Virus record (IMG/VR): IMGVR_UViG_2597490260_000009
DNA length: 11,848 nucleotides
Strand: one strand, 5' to 3'
Origin: a virus
Taxonomy: Duplodnaviria > Heunggongvirae > Uroviricota > Caudoviricetes
Under the pieces are notes generated by a model. That model worked only from the letters and a program-made list of their open reading frames with translations, did no database searches and was not told where the DNA came from. Positions 2,878 to 10,376 of the stretch are shown piece by piece; positions within the stretch are counted from its first letter, which is position 1, and each line of letters begins with the position of its first letter. A program made the position numbers and the translations under genes.

Positions 2878-3924
2878 GTGCGAGTATTACTTCGACCTGT
2901 TCTGGTACCGGAACTCGGGCTGGTGATCGTTAAGCCGGGCCGTGAATCCATGCCGGTATTCCACAATACCCGGGTACTGGTGGAGCCGGAACCGAAAAGC
3001 ATGCGTAATCTGCCGTCCGGGGTTGTTCCTGCCGTTCGCCAGCCGCTAGTGGAAGACAAAACATTGCTGCCGTTTTTCAGTAACGCACGGGTGATTCGTG
3101 CTGCTGGTGGTGCTGGTGCATTGTCTGACTGGCTGTTGCGCCATATTAAATCCTGCCAGTGGCCACACGGCGATTATCATCACAGCGAAACCGTCATTCA
3201 CCGTTATGGTACCGGCGCAATGGTGTTGTGCTGGCACTGCGACAACCAGCTGCGTGACCAGACATCCGAATCACTCGAGCAACTTGCTCATCAAAACCTG
3301 TCAGCATGGATGATTGACGTCATACTCCATGCAATGAATGGCTCGCAGGAACGGGAATTATCGCTGGCTGAATTATCCTGGTGTGCGGTCCGCAATCAGG
3401 TGGCGGACGCGCTACCGGAAGCGGTATTACGTCGTTCGCTGGGGTTGCGTGCGGAAAAAATCCGCTCAATGTACCGTGAAAGCGACATCGTACCGGGAGA
3501 GCAGACCGCCACCAGCATACTGAAGCAGCGCACAAAAAATCTTGCGCCGCTGCCTCACGCCCACCAGCAAAACCCGCCACAGGAAGAGACGGTGGTCAGC
3601 ATTGCCGTTGATCCTGAGTCTCCGGAATCTTTCATGAAACGACCTAAACGTCGCCGCTGGGTTAACGAGAAATACACACGCTGGGTGAAGACACAGCCGT
3701 GTGCGTGTTGTGGTAAGCCAGCCGACGATCCCCATCACCTGATTGGTCATGGTCAGGGCGGAATGGGGACAAAATCTCACGATATTTTCACGCTACCGCT
3801 GTGTCGGGAGCATCACAACGAGCTTCATGCGGATCCTCTGGCGTTCGAAGAAAAGCATGGTTCTCAGGTTGATTTAATTTTTCGTTTTCTTGATCACGCC
3901 TTTGCAACTGGCGTGCTTGGGTAA
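2878..3924 (+). CDS. DUF968 (YdfU-like) prophage protein with a Cys/His-rich HNH-like C-terminal motif
   Basis: 348 aa, GTG start with GGAGG SD at 2868-2872. C-terminus CACCGKPADDPHHLIGHGQGG...CREHHNELH. Size and position match ydfU-type genes upstream of Q. Confidence 0.75.
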   Translation: MRVLLRPVLVPELGLVIVKPGRESMPVFHNTRVLVEPEPKSMRNLPSGVVPAVRQPLVEDKTLLPFFSNARVIRAAGGAGALSDWLLRHIKSCQWPHGDYHHSETVIHRYGTGAMVLCWHCDNQLRDQTSESLEQLAHQNLSAWMIDVILHAMNGSQERELSLAELSWCAVRNQVADALPEAVLRRSLGLRAEKIRSMYRESDIVPGEQTATSILKQRTKNLAPLPHAHQQNPPQEETVVSIAVDPESPESFMKRPKRRRWVNEKYTRWVKTQPCACCGKPADDPHHLIGHGQGGMGTKSHDIFTLPLCREHHNELHADPLAFEEKHGSQVDLIFRFLDHAFATGVLG

Positions 3925-3936
3925 AAGAGGTGACTG

Positions 3937-4311
3937 ATGCTCATAGATTTGGTTTTACCTTACCCGCCGACGGTGAACACTTACTGGCGACGCCGTGGCA
4001 GCACATATTTTATCTCGGAGGAGGGAAAGCGTTATCGCCGGGCTGTGGCGCTTATTGTTCGCCAGCAGCGGCTGAAATTAAGCCTGTCCGGAAGGCTGGC
4101 GATAAAGGTGATTGCAGAGCCACCGGATAAGCGTCGTCGCGACCTGGACAATATCCTGAAAGCACCGCTGGATGCGCTGACGCATGCGGGAGTGTTAATG
4201 GACGATGAGCAGTTTGATGAAATCAATATCGTTCGTGGTCAGCCAGTATCTGGTGGACGTATGGGGGTGAAGATTTACCCCATAATGCATGAAGAGCAGG
4301 TCAAAAAATGA
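3937..4311 (+). CDS. rusA: Holliday junction resolvase RusA
   Basis: 124 aa; PDKRRRDLDNILKAPLDALTHAGVLMDDEQ matches the RusA catalytic core (PDRRRRDLDN...DAL...G..DD). SD AAGAGG upstream. Stop overlaps the next start (ATGA). Confidence 0.85.
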   Translation: MLIDLVLPYPPTVNTYWRRRGSTYFISEEGKRYRRAVALIVRQQRLKLSLSGRLAIKVIAEPPDKRRRDLDNILKAPLDALTHAGVLMDDEQFDEINIVRGQPVSGGRMGVKIYPIMHEEQVKK

Positions 4312-5127
4312 AACTGGAAGATTTACCGAAATACTACTCCCCAAAATCCCCTGGCCTGACCGATGCATCGGCCTCAACGTCAAAAGATGCGCTGAGTATC
4401 ACTGATGTGATGGCCGCGCAGGGCATGACACAGAATCGGGCTGAGATGGGGTTTTCTGCGTTCCTGGGGAAAATGGGCATCAGTATGAATGACAGGGCGC
4501 GGGCAACAGAATTACTGGCAGATTATGCACTCAGTCGGTGCGATCGTGTGGCGGCGTTGAGAAAACTTCCGGCAGAAATAAAACCGGTAGTGATGCGCAT
4601 TGGCTTCGTATGCGTTTGAAGATTATGCCCGTAGCGCGGCGAGCAAAAAACAGTGCCCTTGCTGTCACGGAAAAAAATTTATTGAAAGCGAGGTTTTTAC
4701 AAACAAGATCCAGTATCCGGATGGTAAGCCACCAGTGTGGGCAAAGTGCACAAAAGGCGTGTATCCGTCTTACTGGGAAGAATGGAAAAAAGTCAGGGAG
4801 GTGGTAAAAGTTGCCTGTCCGGAGTGTGGCGGAAAGGGTGAGGTTTCCACCGCCTGTAAGGATTGCCGTGGGCGTGGTGTCGCCATTCATCGTGAAGAGT
4901 CGGTAAAACGTGGTATGCCTGTTATCAGAGATTGCCAGCGTTGTGGTGGTCGTGGCTGTGAAAGGCTGCCATCAACGGAGGCATTTAATGCCATATGCAA
5001 AGTGACGAGTGCTATCACGCTTGATACGTGGAAAAAATCAGTGAAACGCTTTTACGATACGTTGGTGGTTCGGTTTGACATTGAAGAGGCATGGGCGGAG
5101 CGGCAGTTAAAGAGGGTAACGCGATAG
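4308..5127 (+). pseudogene. Q: Lambda-family late antiterminator Q (QuuQ-like, with an enlarged zinc-finger region), split by a frameshift near nt 4594-4602
   Basis: ORF 4308-4619 aligns to the lambda Q N-terminus (SPKSP, TDVMAA.GM) and ORF 4600-5127 in the +1 frame aligns to the C-terminus (YA.EDYARSAA, CxxC pairs, LYDTLVV). The second frame has a TGA at 4591-4593, so the shift lies within about 10 nt. No homopolymer at the site. Confidence 0.65.
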
Positions 5128-5699: not shown

Positions 5700-6824
5700 A
5701 TGCTTAATACTGTAAAAATATCCAGTTGTGAGTTAATCAACGCCGACTGCCTGGAATTTATCCGGTCGTTACCCGAAAATTCTGTTGACCTGATAGTCAC
5801 GGACCCGCCGTACTTTAAAGTGAAGCCTGAGGGCTGGGATAACCAGTGGAAGGGCGACGATGATTACCTGAAGTGGCTGGACCAGTGTCTGGCGCAGTTC
5901 TGGCGGGTGCTGAAACCTGCCGGAAGTCTTTACCTGTTCTGTGGTCATCGCCTGGCATCTGATATCGAAATCATGATGCGTGAACGCTTCAGTGTGCTGA
6001 ACCATATTATCTGGGCGAAGCCGTCCGGACGCTGGAACGGATGCAACAAGGAAAGCCTGCGGGCGTATTTCCCCGCCACAGAGCGCATTCTGTTCGCGGA
6101 ACATTATCAGGGGCCGTATCGTCCGAAAGATGCCGGGTATGCGGCGAAGGGCAGTGCACTGAAACAGCATGTGATGGCCCCGCTGATTTCTTACTTTCGT
6201 GATGCGCGCGCGGCCCTGGGGATAACGGCAAAACAGATTGCAGATGCCACAGGAAAGAAAAACATGGTGTCGCACTGGTTCAGTGCCAGTCAGTGGCAGC
6301 TACCGAATGAAAGCGATTATCTGAAATTACAGGCGCTGTTTGCCCGGGTGGCAGAAGAGAAGCATCGGCGTGGTGAACTGGAAAAGCTCCACCACCAGCT
6401 GGTGGATACGTATACCTCACTGAACCGGCAGTATGCGGAGCTGCTGAGTGAATATAAACATCTGCGGCGGTATTTTGGCGTGACGGTGCAGGTGCCGTAT
6501 ACCGATGTGTGGACGCATAAACCGGTGCAGTTCTATCCCGGNNNNNNNNNNNNNNNNNNNNNNNNNNNNNNNNNNNNNNNNNNNNNNNNNNNNNNNNNNN
6601 NNNNNNNNNNNNNNNNNNNNNNNNNNNNNNNNNNNCCGGCAGAAATGCTGCAGCAGATAATCAGCGCAAGTAGCCGTCCTGGTGATCTGGTTGCGGATTT
6701 TTTCATGGGGTCGGGTTCAACGGTAAAAGCGGCGATGGCACTGGGGCGTCGTGCGATTGGTGTTGAGCTGGAGACCGGACGTTTTGAGCAGACAGTCAGG
6801 GAAGTTCAGGATTTAATCGTTTGA
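5700..6824 (+). CDS. Orphan beta-class DNA amino-methyltransferase (probable N6-adenine); internal N-masked run
   Basis: Motif IV DPPY (LIVTDPPYF) near the N-terminus precedes motif I FxGxG (DLVADFFMGSGST) near the C-terminus, which is the beta-class order. No restriction endonuclease gene adjacent. Reading frame is continuous across the N run at 6542-6635. Confidence 0.85.
   Translation: MLNTVKISSCELINADCLEFIRSLPENSVDLIVTDPPYFKVKPEGWDNQWKGDDDYLKWLDQCLAQFWRVLKPAGSLYLFCGHRLASDIEIMMRERFSVLNHIIWAKPSGRWNGCNKESLRAYFPATERILFAEHYQGPYRPKDAGYAAKGSALKQHVMAPLISYFRDARAALGITAKQIADATGKKNMVSHWFSASQWQLPNESDYLKLQALFARVAEEKHRRGELEKLHHQLVDTYTSLNRQYAELLSEYKHLRRYFGVTVQVPYTDVWTHKPVQFYPXXXXXXXXXXXXXXXXXXXXXXXXXXXXXXXXPAEMLQQIISASSRPGDLVADFFMGSGSTVKAAMALGRRAIGVELETGRFEQTVREVQDLIV
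6542..6635. other. Run of 94 N (masked or unresolved sequence) inside the methyltransferase gene
   Basis: Direct observation. The flanking coding frame is preserved across it. Confidence 1.
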
Positions 6825-7162: not shown

Positions 7163-7383
7163 AAATGTCTCACAATTCAGGCGGTTGACTGTTGTCTGGT
7201 TTGCGGGGAGTTTGTTAAAAGAAACTGGCATGGTGAATCCCCCTGTGCGGAGGGGCAATCAGCGAGTAGGTATATGGGATAATCGCGGATTCAGGTGCTG
7301 GTACTGAATTCACCGGGAGGCACCCGGCACCATGCAATGGCACATAGCGCCACTCTCCAGCCCCTCTCCGGAGGGGCTTTTCT
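7161..7383 (+). repeat. Structured repeat unit A (candidate small-RNA gene)
   Basis: Collinear with unit B at a +468 offset: TTAAATG...CTCACAATTCAG, TTGACT (7185-7190), TTTGTTAAAA, GCATGGTGAATCCCCCTGTGCGGAGGGGC, CACCGGGAGGCACCCGGCACCATG, and terminator GCCCCTC-tccg-GAGGGGC + TTTTCT (7360-7383). The middle segment differs between units. Confidence 0.5.
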
Positions 7384-7572
7384 GTGCCGGATACATCACA
7401 GTTTCTGGAACCTTAGGTACTACAGTATCAGTCAGGGTGCTATATTTTCAGATGTGATGAAAGCCTGTCAGCAGGCAGGGCGTATCGGAAATGACCCAGT
7501 AGAGAAAACGTTGACTCAGATACCGGTGCTGAGTTACCGGGAAACCGGCATCACATGACCGCTATCCTTCCA

Positions 7573-7599
7573 GGCCCATCCGCTCCGGTGGGCCTTTTT
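7573..7599 (+). terminator. Intrinsic terminator in the spacer between repeat units
   Basis: GGCCCA-tccgctccgg-TGGGCC followed by TTTTT. A TTGACT -35-like box lies upstream at 7511-7516. Confidence 0.5.
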
Positions 7600-7621
7600 A
7601 CTGCAGAAAACAGGTTCCCCG

Positions 7622-7870
7622 TTAAATGCTATGTTGCTCACAATTCAGTAAGTTGACAGTTGCCTGTCAGACTGGGCATTTGTTAAAAAAATTTCGCATG
7701 GTGAATCCCCCTGAGCGGAGGGGCGACTGGTGACGGTATAATCTCTGATTATCAAAACGAGAATGACGCGGGTTTAGTGGCACCGGGCTGAACTCACCGG
7801 GAGGCACCCGGCACCATGTGCATGATGATACAGATACGCGGCTTTAGCCCCTCTCCGGAGGGGTTTTCTT
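7622..7870 (+). repeat. Structured repeat unit B (candidate small-RNA gene)
   Basis: Same conserved blocks as unit A: CTCACAATTCAG (7637-7648), TTGACA (7653-7658), TTTGTTAAAA, GCATGGTGAATCCCCCTGAGCGGAGGGGC, CACCGGGAGGCACCCGGCACCATG, and terminator CCCCTC-tccg-GAGGGG + TTTTCTT (7847-7870). Confidence 0.5.
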
Positions 7871-7877
7871 GTGGGCA

Positions 7878-7905
7878 AAAAAAGCCCGCGCTGGGAGACG
7901 CGGGC
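7878..7905 (-). terminator. Minus-strand intrinsic terminator
   Basis: On the minus strand: GCCCGCG-tctcccag-CGCGGGC followed by TTTTTTT (plus-strand A run 7877-7883). Confidence 0.5.
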
Positions 7906-8098
7906 GGCAAGGAATAAACAATAAAACGTGAAGTAATATTTCAGCTGGCGAATAATACCCCATAGTAATCACTCTGCGCAACTGCGCGGTCTTTTTCGAA
8001 TTGCGGGCTGTCGTCTCTCTTCTGCCATTGTCCTGTAACTTCCGGACTTCAGCCCGCTCCTTATTTTACTCACAATATTATCCCGGCCGGGAGGATTC

Positions 8099-8326
8099 AT
8101 GGCATTTAAACACTATGACGTGGTCAGGGCGGTATCGCCGTCAGACCTTGCGAAACGACTGACACAAAAACTGAAGGAGGGCTGGCAGCCGTTTGGTAGT
8201 CCGGTGGCCATAACCCCTTATACCCTGATGCAGGCGATTGCAGCAGAAGGTGATGTGGTGGTCAGTGGTGCAACTGAGCCGGATTGGTACTACGTCATCG
8301 TACTGGCCCGGCATTCCAGGCCATAA
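8099..8326 (+). CDS. Small phage protein (75 aa), DUF1737-like
   Basis: Strong SD GGGAGGA at 8089-8095. Sequence MAFKHYDVVRAVSPSDL...EGWQPFGSPVA matches my memory of the small DUF1737 family found upstream of lysis genes; family assignment not verified. Confidence 0.6.
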   Translation: MAFKHYDVVRAVSPSDLAKRLTQKLKEGWQPFGSPVAITPYTLMQAIAAEGDVVVSGATEPDWYYVIVLARHSRP

Positions 8327-8530
8327 AAGACAGTCTGGCAGTGGGACTAAATGCACTGACGCTGATGGATATTACCAAAAATGTAACGTATGGCGTTGAG
8401 ATAGAAAGTCTGGCGCTGGAGATAAATGCACCGGCATCATCATAAAAAGTGAGCCAGTCAAATGGAAGGTATCGTTAAACTCACCGGTAGTGTCAGTGGG
8501 TCGTCTGAGACGCTTGCATGAGTTATCAGA

Positions 8531-8559
8531 GCCATCAGTAGTTAACTGGTGGCTTTTTT
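8531..8559 (+). terminator. Intrinsic terminator upstream of the holin gene
   Basis: GCCATCAG-tagttaa-CTGGTGGC hairpin (one G-U pair) followed by TTTTTT. Confidence 0.55.
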
Positions 8560-8594
8560 ATTGTTTTCAGCTTCCGGATAACGGGAGACGGGGT

Positions 8595-8810
8595 ATGGAC
8601 CAGATGGAAAAAATCACAACAGGTGTGTCATACACCACGTCAGCGGTGGGAACGGGCTACTGGTTCCTGCAGTTGCTGGACAGGGTTTCCCCGTCTCAGT
8701 GGGCGGCAATAGGCGTGCTGGGGAGTCTGCTGTTTGGGCTGCTGACATATCTGACTAACCTGTATTTCAAAATCAGAGAGGACCGTCGTAAGGCGGCACG
8801 GGGAGAGTAA
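8595..8810 (+). CDS. Phage-21-type pinholin (class II holin, 71 aa) with dual-start motif
   Basis: [10 protein letters not shown]...[49 protein letters not shown] matches S21 as recalled. Met1 and Met4 give the 71/68-aa antiholin/holin pair. GGAG at 8584-8587. The ORF track start at 8490 is an unsupported extension. Confidence 0.85.
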
Positions 8811-8814
8811 TTCA

Positions 8815-9159
8815 ATGACTCAAAACTATGAACTGATTGTGAAAGGGATCCGCAATTTTGAGAATAAAGTTACGGTAACTTTAGCATTACAGGACAAAGA
8901 ACGCTTTGACGGTGAAATTTTTGACCTGGACATCTCGCTGGACCGTGTTGAAGGTGCTGCGCTGGAGTTTTATGAGGCAGCGGCCAGAAGGAGCATCAGA
9001 CAGGTCTTCCTGGATGTCGCTGCCGGGTTATGTGAAGGGGATGAGCAGTCGCCGGAAAAGCGCCCCGTAATTTTAGAGGCGCAGAATGTATGGATAACCT
9101 ACAAAGGAAAGCTACCGGGAAGGATTACTGGTTCCCTGAAGACTCCGCCGAAATGGTAG
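8815..9159 (+). CDS. Hypothetical 114-aa protein translationally coupled to the holin; DUF1327/YdfR-like by position and size
   Basis: ATG 4 nt after the holin stop, with SD GGGGAGAG upstream. Sits between holin and endolysin as ydfR does in Qin-type cassettes. Assignment is positional; sequence identity not verified. Confidence 0.5.
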   Translation: MTQNYELIVKGIRNFENKVTVTLALQDKERFDGEIFDLDISLDRVEGAALEFYEAAARRSIRQVFLDVAAGLCEGDEQSPEKRPVILEAQNVWITYKGKLPGRITGSLKTPPKW

Positions 9160-9185
9160 TTTTGCCAGCATAATTTTCTTCCAGC

Positions 9186-9244
9186 NNNNNNNNNNNNNNN
9201 NNNNNNNNNNNNNNNNNNNNNNNNNNNNNNNNNNNNNNNNNNNN
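9186..9244. other. Run of 59 N (masked or unresolved sequence)
   Basis: Direct observation. Confidence 1.
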
Positions 9245-9440
9245 TGAAAGAATTTTGTTGTTCCTGGGACCATTTGGGGTTGCGTGATTCAAAATGAATG
9301 GATGCCAGCGTTGGCAGCATTTGCTCCCTGGGAATTGATAAGGCCAGATGTGAAAATGCAACAGTGAGGGCATTTACATCATCCCGAAGCCTGGAAATGC
9401 AGTCGAGCAACTCCTGTAGAGAAATGGTGCTATTGTCCAT
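9245..9440 (-). CDS. Antisense moron gene inside the lysis cassette; at least 65 codons, 3' end lost in the N run
   Basis: Minus-strand ATG at 9440-9438 with SD AGAGGA 8 nt upstream. Translation MDNSTISLQELLDCISRLRDDVNALTVAFSHLALSIPREQMLPTLASIHFESRNPKWSQEQQNSF. Possible promoter TTTATC-17-TATGTT further upstream on the minus strand. Confidence 0.45.
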
Positions 9441-9545
9441 AAATAATCCTCTTGATTGTCTTTACCTTTTCCCCGCCTGATTCAACAGGCCGGGACAGAT
9501 AAACATATCCAGGGTTCAGAAACCGATAAATCCTGATAAATATCC

Positions 9546-10079
9546 ATGAACGCAAAAATCAAATACGGCCTGTCAGCTGCAGTTCTGGCGCTGATTGGAG
9601 CAGGCGCATCAGCTCCTCAGATACTTGACCAGTTTCTGGATGAAAAAGAGGGTAACCACACTACGGCATACCGCGATGGTTCCGGCAACTGGACCATCTG
9701 TCGGGGGGCCACGATGGTGGATGGAAAACCCGTTTTTCCCGGTATGAAACTGTCGAAGGAAAAATGCGACCAGGTCAACGCCATTGAGCGTGATAAGGCG
9801 CTGGCATGGGTGGAGAAAAACATCAAAGTGCCATTGAGCGAACCCCAGAAAGCGGGGATCGCGTCATTCTGTCCGTACAACATTGGTCCCGGTAAGTGTT
9901 TCCCGTCGACGTTTTATAAACGAATTAATGCAGGTGATCGCAGGGGAGCGTGTGAGGCGATTCGCTGGTGGATTAAGGACGGTGGCAGAGACTGCCGTAT
10001 TCGTTCAAACAACTGCTACGGTCAGGTATCCCGTCGTGACCAGGAGAGCGCGCTGGCGTGCTGGGGTATCGACAGATAA
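9546..10079 (+). CDS. R: SAR endolysin (T4-lysozyme-like, GH24)
   Basis: N-terminal signal-arrest-release segment GLSAAVLALIGAGASA. Catalytic E-x8-D-x5-T arrangement (EGNHTTAYRDGSGNWT). Overall similarity to P21 and DLP12-type lysozymes. No obvious SD before the ATG. Confidence 0.85.
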   Translation: MNAKIKYGLSAAVLALIGAGASAPQILDQFLDEKEGNHTTAYRDGSGNWTICRGATMVDGKPVFPGMKLSKEKCDQVNAIERDKALAWVEKNIKVPLSEPQKAGIASFCPYNIGPGKCFPSTFYKRINAGDRRGACEAIRWWIKDGGRDCRIRSNNCYGQVSRRDQESALACWGIDR

Positions 10080-10238
10080 GCAGAATATTTTGCTGAAAAA
10101 TAAGGCATGGCCACGCGGGCGGATAACATGAAATCCTGCGAAGTGGCGAAACGTAAGTGAATAAAAGTAAAAACCCCGTTTGTTGGCACCAAGCGGGGTT
10201 TTGTGTTTCCTGACTCCGGAAAAGTCAAAGGAGAAAGT

Positions 10239-10376
10239 GTGTTTGATTTTAGCAAACTGATTCGGGAGATTCGAGTGATGGCTGAAAAATTATCCACCTG
10301 GAAGTTCATTCTTATCTGGCTGGTGTTTGTGATTATGGCCTCTGGTTATTTCATCGGTCAGATACGCTGGTGGTGA
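10239..10376 (+). CDS. Candidate small membrane protein (45 aa) immediately upstream of Rz
   Basis: SD AAGGAG at 10228-10233, 5 nt before GTG at 10239. Translation [45 protein letters not shown] has one hydrophobic helix. Stop TGA at 10374-10376, 1 nt before the Rz ATG. Confidence 0.35.

Follow-up and report, generated by a model that had tools for sequence, protein, structure and literature searches.

The window, an 11,848-nt stretch of DNA analyzed as a whole, is a contig from a lambdoid Escherichia coli prophage and is 100% identical to UTI89 outside its runs of N. The UTI89 annotation gives the order hokD, DUF968, rusA, a Q-like antiterminator, a methylase, three tRNAs, and a class II holin, followed by a "YdfR family protein," a minus-strand "hypothetical protein," a lysozyme (rrrQ), Rz, and terminase and head genes. 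Without its N run, the region 8560-10100 is also 100% identical to many other ExPEC chromosomes, and parts of this region are found in 4,408 of the 5,426 complete E. coli genomes. In window coordinates, it holds the following features.

8595..8810, plus strand: gene of an S21-type class II pinholin (S) with the dual start MDQM (PF04971, E = 9e-33; phrog_9876; annotated as a class II holin in UTI89)
8815..9159, plus strand: ydfR, 114 aa, DUF1327/YdfR family (PF07041, E = 6.9e-44; phrog_406, E = 2.7e-68)
9125..9440, minus strand: antisense gene with a true product of 90 aa (WP_001351274.1 in UTI89), placed by the UTI89 ORF and annotation and by phrog_2411 (E = 5.5e-55); the window copy is broken by an N run
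9154..9487, no strand: slot segment, from about codon 112 of ydfR to the block shared upstream of the endolysin gene (R), delimited by alignment with vB_EcoS-640R1; true length about 291 nt, GC 45%
9186..9244, no strand: N run, 59 N in place of 16 nt (AATGCCGCCAGCCACT) in identical genomes, from the UTI89 alignment
9452-9447, minus strand: Shine-Dalgarno (SD) sequence AGAGGA with 6-nt spacing to the ATG at 9440-9438, read from the sequence
9494-9471, minus strand: predicted leader hairpin CCCG-GCCUG-uugaau-CAGGC-GGGG (RNA fold centroid, -18.2 kcal/mol, z -1.7)
9502..9530, minus strand: candidate promoter TTTATC (9530-9525), 17-nt spacer, TATGTT (9507-9502), a conserved block below the threshold of a consensus scan
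9546..10079, plus strand: SAR-type endolysin gene (PF00959, E = 4e-24)

Because the window is one whole contig of 11,848 nt, its N runs are probably scaffold gaps, and the run at 9186-9244 does not preserve length. A second run, in the methylase gene, also exceeds the true length, giving 374 aa in the window versus 349 aa in UTI89. Window positions convert to those of L001 by adding 441 to the left of the N run at 9186-9244 and 398 to its right. The preliminary description had suggested that 59 masked nucleotides concealed the 3′ end of the antisense gene and its relation to ydfR; the true length is 16 nt rather than 59. Since the 59 N represent 16 nt, the 113-aa minus-strand ORF listed for the window is a gap artifact, and the length and 3′ end taken from it were wrong. 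The true product has 90 aa, its gene ends at 9125, and once the gap is resolved, the frame stays open for more than a few codons. A 65-aa partial protein is on record for the window contig. ORFs read through the N runs of this contig are unreliable, since the runs do not preserve length.

Matches to PF04971, PF00959, PF03245, and PF06085 mark the locus as a pinholin/SAR-endolysin cassette of the phage 21 type. SAR endolysins are recognized by an N-terminal signal-anchor-release segment together with the motif E-8-D-5-T, and the endolysin in the window starts with YGLSAAVLALIGAGASAP, followed by E-8-D-5-T. ydfR sits between the S21-type holin and the lysozyme, as in K-12 Qin, and its product matches PF07041 over profile positions 1-92 of 93 with 148.4 bits, against a gathering score of 25. 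It was proposed to be coupled to the holin gene, and this is borne out by its start 4 nt past the holin stop and by a GGAG within the holin 3′ end. The same proposal treated the genes between holin and endolysin as a departure from the canonical phage 21 cassette. This does not apply to ydfR: the order S-ydfR-R is itself standard, being found in K-12-type Qin and in many Stx phages, and it is common in lambdoid and Stx phages, with 370 matching phage records. Judged by family and gene order, ydfR is a common, standard partner of S21-type holins and an ordinary late accessory gene.

One close point of comparison is essQ-ydfR-rrrQ of K-12 Qin. It shares with the window the order of S21-type holin, ydfR, and lysozyme, a YdfR identical at residues 1-66, and the 11 nt preceding the endolysin ATG. 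In the alignment, residues from about 67 to 114 diverge, so that the window protein has another C-terminal part. Furthermore, ydfR of the K-12 type encodes 103 aa, overlaps the endolysin start in an ATGA, and has no antisense gene beside it, whereas in the true sequence of the window locus 343 nt holding the minus-strand gene separate the ydfR stop from the endolysin start. For K-12 YdfR, two-hybrid and copurification assays are reported to show binding to the catalytic N-terminal half of RNase E; residues 1-72 suffice for this binding, and the protein copurifies with RNA, while its overexpression has little effect on the transcriptome (PMC13232886, 2026). These RNase E data were obtained with overexpressed K-12 protein. 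A genetic screen that ties ydfR to envelope integrity is also cited in PMC13232886.

The endolysin gene had also been singled out for lacking an obvious SD. Indeed, no purine-rich SD precedes its ATG in the window sequence, but this is not special to the window, as the SD is absent in every version of the cassette. The missing SD is thus, from the versions compared, a property of the whole cassette family. In the compact K-12-type version, its absence is explained by translational coupling through the ATGA overlap with ydfR, and the 343 nt in the window break this coupling. The layout of the window recurs in Chlobot, a phage that was recovered from puddle water and mud and whose complete genome is on record; this suggests that the 343-nt arrangement still works.

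The convergent minus-strand gene was described as starting at 9440 behind the SD AGAGGA, and we confirmed both the ATG and the 6-nt spacing. The gene ends inside ydfR, its last 35 nt overlapping the ydfR 3′ end. We compared its alleles in UTI89, in phages vB_EcoS-783R2 and Chlobot, in three other chromosomes, and in an orphan copy next to iha. In all of these alleles, about seven, the frame is open, with 90 codons in each except one of 89. Differences between alleles concentrate at third codon positions (7/7/27 and 16/18/43), and dN/dS is 0.18 to 0.39 for allele pairs at a dS of 0.18 to 1.5. A plus-strand ORF that shares the third positions of the antisense gene has lost its ATG or gained a stop in other alleles. 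The SD is kept as AGAGGA or TGAGGA across the lysis-cassette alleles, with a shifted GAGGAG in the orphan copy. We also considered the orphan copy as independent evidence of selection; it is weak as such, its 58 to 60 copies being at least 99% identical to one another and hence a single lineage. Relatives with 24 to 35% identity can be aligned from end to end with the 90-aa protein, and E10, L11, L18, N23, L25, A28, F29, Y31, L32, E39, E51, S52, F65, and L72 are conserved among them. By the pattern of these substitutions, the antisense ORF is a real protein-coding gene under purifying selection.

Its product is a protein of 10.1 kDa, acidic (pI 4.95), with neither a transmembrane segment nor a signal peptide. 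We modeled P0002, a 97% identical stand-in for the UTI89 protein, with AF2 and obtained a helical bundle of three helices (residues 8-34, 38-52, and 59-76) with a pLDDT of 81. Searched by fold and by sequence, solved and viral structures gave generic helical matches, none of them informative, and a profile of the 90-aa protein found no match among PDB sequences. Scans of the 90-aa protein with Pfam, NCBIfam, and PADLOC gave nothing above noise, and neither did a Pfam scan of 20 members of the family. In the family searches, neither this protein nor YdfR matches a characterized lysis accessory family.

Residues 1-90 match positions 1-90 of the 90-position profile of PHROG 2411, which is labeled "hypothetical protein," goes by the name "Ybl58" in UniRef, and has no functional annotation. 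The antisense protein belongs to this same family, but the membership says nothing about mechanism. Literature queries by accession number and by the name Ybl58 returned nothing relevant. The exact 90-aa protein is on record in more than 1,000 contigs, and 1,052 of the 5,426 complete E. coli genomes (about 19%) carry the gene, the carriers including the uropathogen UTI89 and the Rac prophage of E. coli B, where the allele is at 91%. Nearly all close homologues are from Escherichia or Shigella, and a profile search of 1.84 billion representative proteins returned 19 matches to the family. The gene is widespread and already annotated; it is a modest lead, not a surprise.

More distant relatives occupy other places. 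Two (P0067 and P0070) lie antisense between the tail genes M and L, one (P0064) lies antisense upstream of the terminase genes, and another (P0069) is near other tail genes; still others stand alone in bacterial chromosomes, one such site being between dinI and bssS. Since relatives sit in tail and terminase regions or alone, the function of the protein does not appear to be tied to lysis. The E. coli copies, however, all adjoin ydfR apart from one island-borne lineage, and for this reason a functional link with YdfR or lysis is possible.

The junction between ydfR and R proved to be variable, with four states: empty, as in phage vB_EcoS-640R1; occupied by the 90-aa gene; occupied by gp06 (104 aa), as in Stx2 phage 86; or occupied by an 86-aa gene, as in PhiR5_1. 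Across the 5,426 complete E. coli genomes, the 90-aa gene accounts for 1,052, the empty state for about 1,216, the 86-aa gene for 294, and gp06 for 90. The genes in phage 86 and PhiR5_1 share with the window gene the slot, the antisense orientation, and a nearly identical upstream block, CATGGATATTTATCAGGATTTATCGGTT..CCCTGGATATGTT. They differ from it in encoding proteins without detectable homology to its product and in being accompanied by a YdfR with a long C-terminal extension. Homology among the three occupants was rejected, with an hhalign probability of <1%. The cassette inserted in the window has a GC content of 45%, versus 54% for the holin gene and 53% each for R and Rz.

A further proposal was that the antisense gene has its own promoter. 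A sigma-70 consensus scan of the minus strand upstream of the gene found none, but comparison points to a weak, conserved candidate, TTTATC-N17-TATGTT, which matches the two hexamers at 3 of 6 and 4 of 6 positions and lies inside the untranslated region upstream of the endolysin gene. Read on the minus strand, the block CATGGATATTTATCAGGATTTATCGGTT..CCCTGGATATGTT precedes all three unrelated antisense genes. TTTATC-N17-TATGTT is kept in the divergent orphan copy next to iha, and a distant member of the family, located in a tail operon, retains ATCAGGAT-N15-CCCTGGTTATGTT at the same spacing. In the empty-slot form, TATGTT is replaced by CAGGTT and the first ~20 nt of the leader are retained; the retention of these nucleotides suggests that the gene was lost secondarily. 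Taken together, these comparisons make a weak promoter for the antisense gene reasonably well supported, though not proven. We also asked whether the block could be part of an AgvB/AsxR anti-sRNA locus and rejected this because those sRNAs map to the PR′ moron site, upstream of the holin (PMC4104026).

A transcript from near 9495 would open with the stable hairpin at 9494-9471, the stem of which covaries in JJ1887 (AGCCTG/CAGGCT). At its other end, the minus strand from the stop at 9125 to the holin gene yielded no intrinsic terminator; all that it offers is a poor hairpin, the loop of which is 13 nt long. Because no terminator follows the gene, the transcript would run into ydfR and S.

The hairpin at 9494-9471 occupies the place of the first hairpin of a longer element, which we call R1, in the leaders of relatives. 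In phage-borne relatives and in gp06 of phage 86, about 80 nt lie between the promoter block and the SD, composed of UCAGCCCG, a covarying hairpin 1, and a hairpin 2 whose loop reads GAUGGCUGAUUA. When viral contigs were scanned for this loop, at least 120 loci were found, and among the matches listed the whole architecture is present in 109 of 122 instances. Downstream ORFs among the matches listed have a median length of 76 aa and are very diverse, with BLAST sorting their 77 unique sequences into 18 clusters. At 92 of the 93 viral loci among these matches, most of the large ORFs nearby run the other way. In a 55-sequence alignment, hairpin 1 is 96% paired, with many compensatory changes, while the invariance of the loop is uninformative, the aligned sequences having been chosen by the loop motif. 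A covariance model of R1 detects the element, at 32 to 84 bits, ahead of gp06 and five family members. Run with default filters, the model matches neither the window nor any of the 90-aa E. coli alleles. With the filters off, it gives a weak match of 9.2 bits in the expected place (9449-9502, minus strand), in which 32 model positions are deleted; the match spans the 5′ part and hairpin 1 only, the hairpin 2 positions being among those deleted. The leader of gp06 thus differs from that of the window gene, matching the model at 33 bits where the latter does so only marginally. The window gene does share the arrangement seen at R1 loci, a small ORF no more than 45 nt downstream that opposes large ORFs, in this case S, ydfR, R, and Rz. 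Scanning this region and related loci against Rfam gave no family for the antisense 5′ region, and a description of R1 was not found in Rfam or in the literature searched.

It is conceivable, though we would sooner doubt it than assert it, that the antisense gene is one cargo of a widespread modular platform, in which a conserved promoter and a structured leader of about 80 nt drive hypervariable small proteins that oppose late or structural operons. The window copy would then be a derivative with the promoter and hairpin 1 that has lost hairpin 2. The leader features include UCAGCC, a 3′ arm of hairpin 2 that resembles an anti-SD, and a possible UCAGCC:GGCUGA pseudoknot; R1 could be a translational switch under the control of a ligand, a protein, or an sRNA. 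Its cargoes could be arms-race proteins, such as antidefense or exclusion factors.

We weighed several other accounts of the antisense gene. That it is nonfunctional, an open frame called again and again by annotation pipelines, would fit its bare label as a hypothetical protein, the lack of a Pfam family, and the tiny size of the family (19 of 1.84 billion representatives). We find this account hardly credible: the low dN/dS and third-position bias, at a dS reaching 1.5, contradict it, and relatives at 24 to 35% identity still align in full length with conserved positions, the SD is conserved, and the AF2 model is confident. A role at the RNA level is unlikely but better placed. Here, a minus-strand transcript through ydfR and the holin gene would damp any lysis-gene expression that arises in the lysogen by leakage or read-through, leaving the protein a secondary role. 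With no terminator after the stop, the transcript would be antisense to both genes, and the gene itself already overlaps ydfR by 35 nt; moreover, three unrelated coding sequences have the promoter block and the orientation in common, so that transcription itself could be the common denominator. Against it, the coding frame is under clear purifying selection with its length conserved, distant relatives retain the protein in other operons or alone in chromosomes, and about 1,216 genomes do without the gene and have an altered -10.

Another account places the proteins in lysis itself, with YdfR, the 90-aa protein, or both modulating pinholin triggering or SAR-endolysin activation. In its favor, S and R flank both genes, translation of ydfR is coupled to that of S and, in compact cassettes, also to that of R, and there is the envelope-integrity link from the screen cited in PMC13232886. 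Yet both proteins are soluble, acidic, and without transmembrane segments, whereas known antiholins are membrane proteins; the antisense gene is missing from empty-slot phages and K-12-type cassettes, its relatives are located in tail and terminase regions, and its orientation uncouples it from late expression. We consider a tuning of lysis decidedly unlikely. Finally, the antisense protein might form a convergent two-gene module with the C-terminal part of its late-strand partner (YdfR residues ~80-114), for instance as inhibitor and target made at different times. Wherever a family member lies in a phage, its 3′ end is overlapped by a small ORF of the late strand, the partner ORFs share a similar terminal motif, IKGxL....I.GDL, and a profile built from four partners ranks YdfR first and third among 871 ORFs. 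Homology of the partner ORFs with the YdfR C terminus, suggestive by eye, was not accepted, the similarity being nonsignificant (E = 1.1 to 3.6). As the YdfR C terminus is also retained in the empty-slot form without the antisense gene, and chromosomal family members have no such partner, we regard a module of this kind as very improbable.

The explanation that we favor, and hold to be fairly probable, is that ydfR is a late accessory gene and the antisense gene an autonomous moron, predicted to encode a protein binder expressed in the lysogen. ydfR would be a late gene cotranscribed and translationally coupled with the pinholin gene, and its product, to go by the K-12 protein, would have RNase E or RNA as its target in late infection and would not serve in envelope disruption. 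The antisense moron would be an autonomous small-gene cassette dropped into the slot between ydfR and the endolysin gene, with a 90-aa product that is soluble and acidic and has three helices. A weak sigma-70-type promoter of its own, TTTATC-N17-TATGTT, would drive it in opposition to the late operon, so that its expression, in the lysogen for instance, would not require Q-dependent late transcription. The 90-aa protein would most likely stay outside the lysis machinery and help the lysogen or prophage by binding a protein of the host or the phage.

Morons were reportedly defined for HK97 and HK022, by Juhala et al. in 2000, and a further example is lambda bor, which lies antisense next to Rz. 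Like these, the window gene is an extra gene with a lower GC content than its flanks (45% versus 53 to 54%) and a plausible promoter of its own, and it opposes the late operon; the genes on either side of it are adjacent in vB_EcoS-640R1 and in the K-12-type cassette. In contrast to classic morons, it has no factor-independent terminator of its own, and its promoter is weak by consensus. Its product also differs from the envelope proteins Bor and Lom in being a predicted cytoplasmic helical protein. The suggestion that the gene is a moron gains from its being a real, selected gene found in only part of the otherwise collinear cassettes, from its low GC content and conserved upstream block, and from antisense relatives elsewhere, all of which agree with a moron that works independently of lysis. 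As an occupant of the slot, though, it is by these comparisons an ordinary moron in kind, one of several interchangeable passengers; lysogenic expression is a plausible reading.

Cassettes of the S21 type are often drawn as S-R-Rz, and the junction between ydfR and R should be seen as a recurrent slot for small genes that oppose the late operon. A phenotype of the antisense gene in phage exclusion, host physiology, or RNA metabolism, if found, would concern many strains, the gene being present in about one-fifth of complete E. coli genomes. If the R1 leader is indeed a platform shared by unrelated cargoes, then it would be a candidate for a new cis-regulatory RNA, and the promoter and leader common to these cargoes would provide a handle on further small phage effectors.

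A leader of about 80 nt is conserved upstream of small ORFs of great diversity, both in loci carrying relatives of the 90-aa antisense protein (family members) or gp06 of phage 86 and in the viral-contig loci L029-L148, which were picked by a loop motif of the leader and made up the viral sample (at least 120 loci). It comprises UCAGCC, a covarying hairpin and a second hairpin with the loop GAUGGCUGAUUA, and UCAGCC possibly pairs with GGCUGA as a pseudoknot. When compared with Rfam, the leader matched no family. The ORFs that follow it have a median length of 76 aa, fall into 18 clusters and, at 92 of 93 loci, run antisense to the phage structural genes around them. Individual leaders lie as follows:

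L003, 2885-2968, minus strand: leader
L013, 3918-4002: leader
L016, 3924-4004: leader
L020, 760-822: leader
L022, 380-457: leader
L026, 38-116: leader

In four of these loci, the 3′ end of the family member is overlapped by a small late-strand ORF with the C-terminal motif IKGxL....I.GDL. The C-terminus of YdfR resembles this motif, a likeness to the ORF ends that is without statistical significance (E of 1-4).

L016, 4261-4476: late-strand ORF
L022, 687-869: late-strand ORF
L026, 371-604: late-strand ORF
L013, 4248-4436: late-strand ORF
Window, 9070-9159: YdfR C-terminus, YKGKLPGRITGSLKTPP

The antisense gene itself recurs in other E. coli settings:

L011 (E. coli PKF4), 1146-1418: orphan copy adjoining iha
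L027 (E. coli B, Rac prophage), 2934-4833: holin, ydfR, antisense gene, lysozyme and Rz

With 76% nucleotide identity to the antisense gene, the copy by iha is intact over its 90 codons. Because traces of ydfR and of the start of the endolysin gene border it, the copy is what survives of a degraded lysis cassette. The same copy is found in 58-60 genomes, all at least 99% identical to one another, and these copies form one lineage. A 91% allele is present in the Rac prophage of E. coli B, where the lysis cassette directly adjoins trkG.

The window, one entire contig of 11,848 nt, contains two N runs (6533-6628 and 9186-9244), both longer than the real sequence at those places in identical genomes; at the second, 59 N replace 16 nt. 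The methylase ORF, read across an N run, has 374 aa in the window versus 349 aa in identical genomes. ORF calls spanning these runs are unreliable.

The interval that separates the tRNA genes from the holin gene, in the PR′ moron region where the published anti-sRNA/Pas sRNAs are located, contains three copies of the STnc100 sRNA family. Two, at 161 and 136 bits, pass the gathering threshold of Rfam; the third is weak (30 bits).

Window, 7199-7389, 7428-7601 and 7667-7876: STnc100 copies
L001 (UTI89), 7640-7830, 7869-8042 and 8108-8317: the same copies
Window, 8528-8556, late strand: terminator-like hairpin (AGAGCCATCAGTAGTTAACTGGTGGCTTTTTTATTG) directly 5′ of the holin gene

This hairpin could be an sRNA 3′ end or a site that Q-modified polymerase reads through. 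A HokD-type toxin ORF (2218-2430; hokD in the UTI89 annotation) at the prophage's early end is unrelated to the antisense-gene finding.

The endolysin-Rz junction holds two further features:

Window, 10170-10202: strong terminator-like hairpin, flanked on either side by T-rich runs
Window, 10203-10376: 57-aa ORF 3′ of this hairpin (phrog_6632, function unknown)

The C-terminal segment of the 57-aa protein is hydrophobic. The junction between R and Rz forms a second variable slot, with ant in Stx2 phage 86 and small ORFs in other phages.
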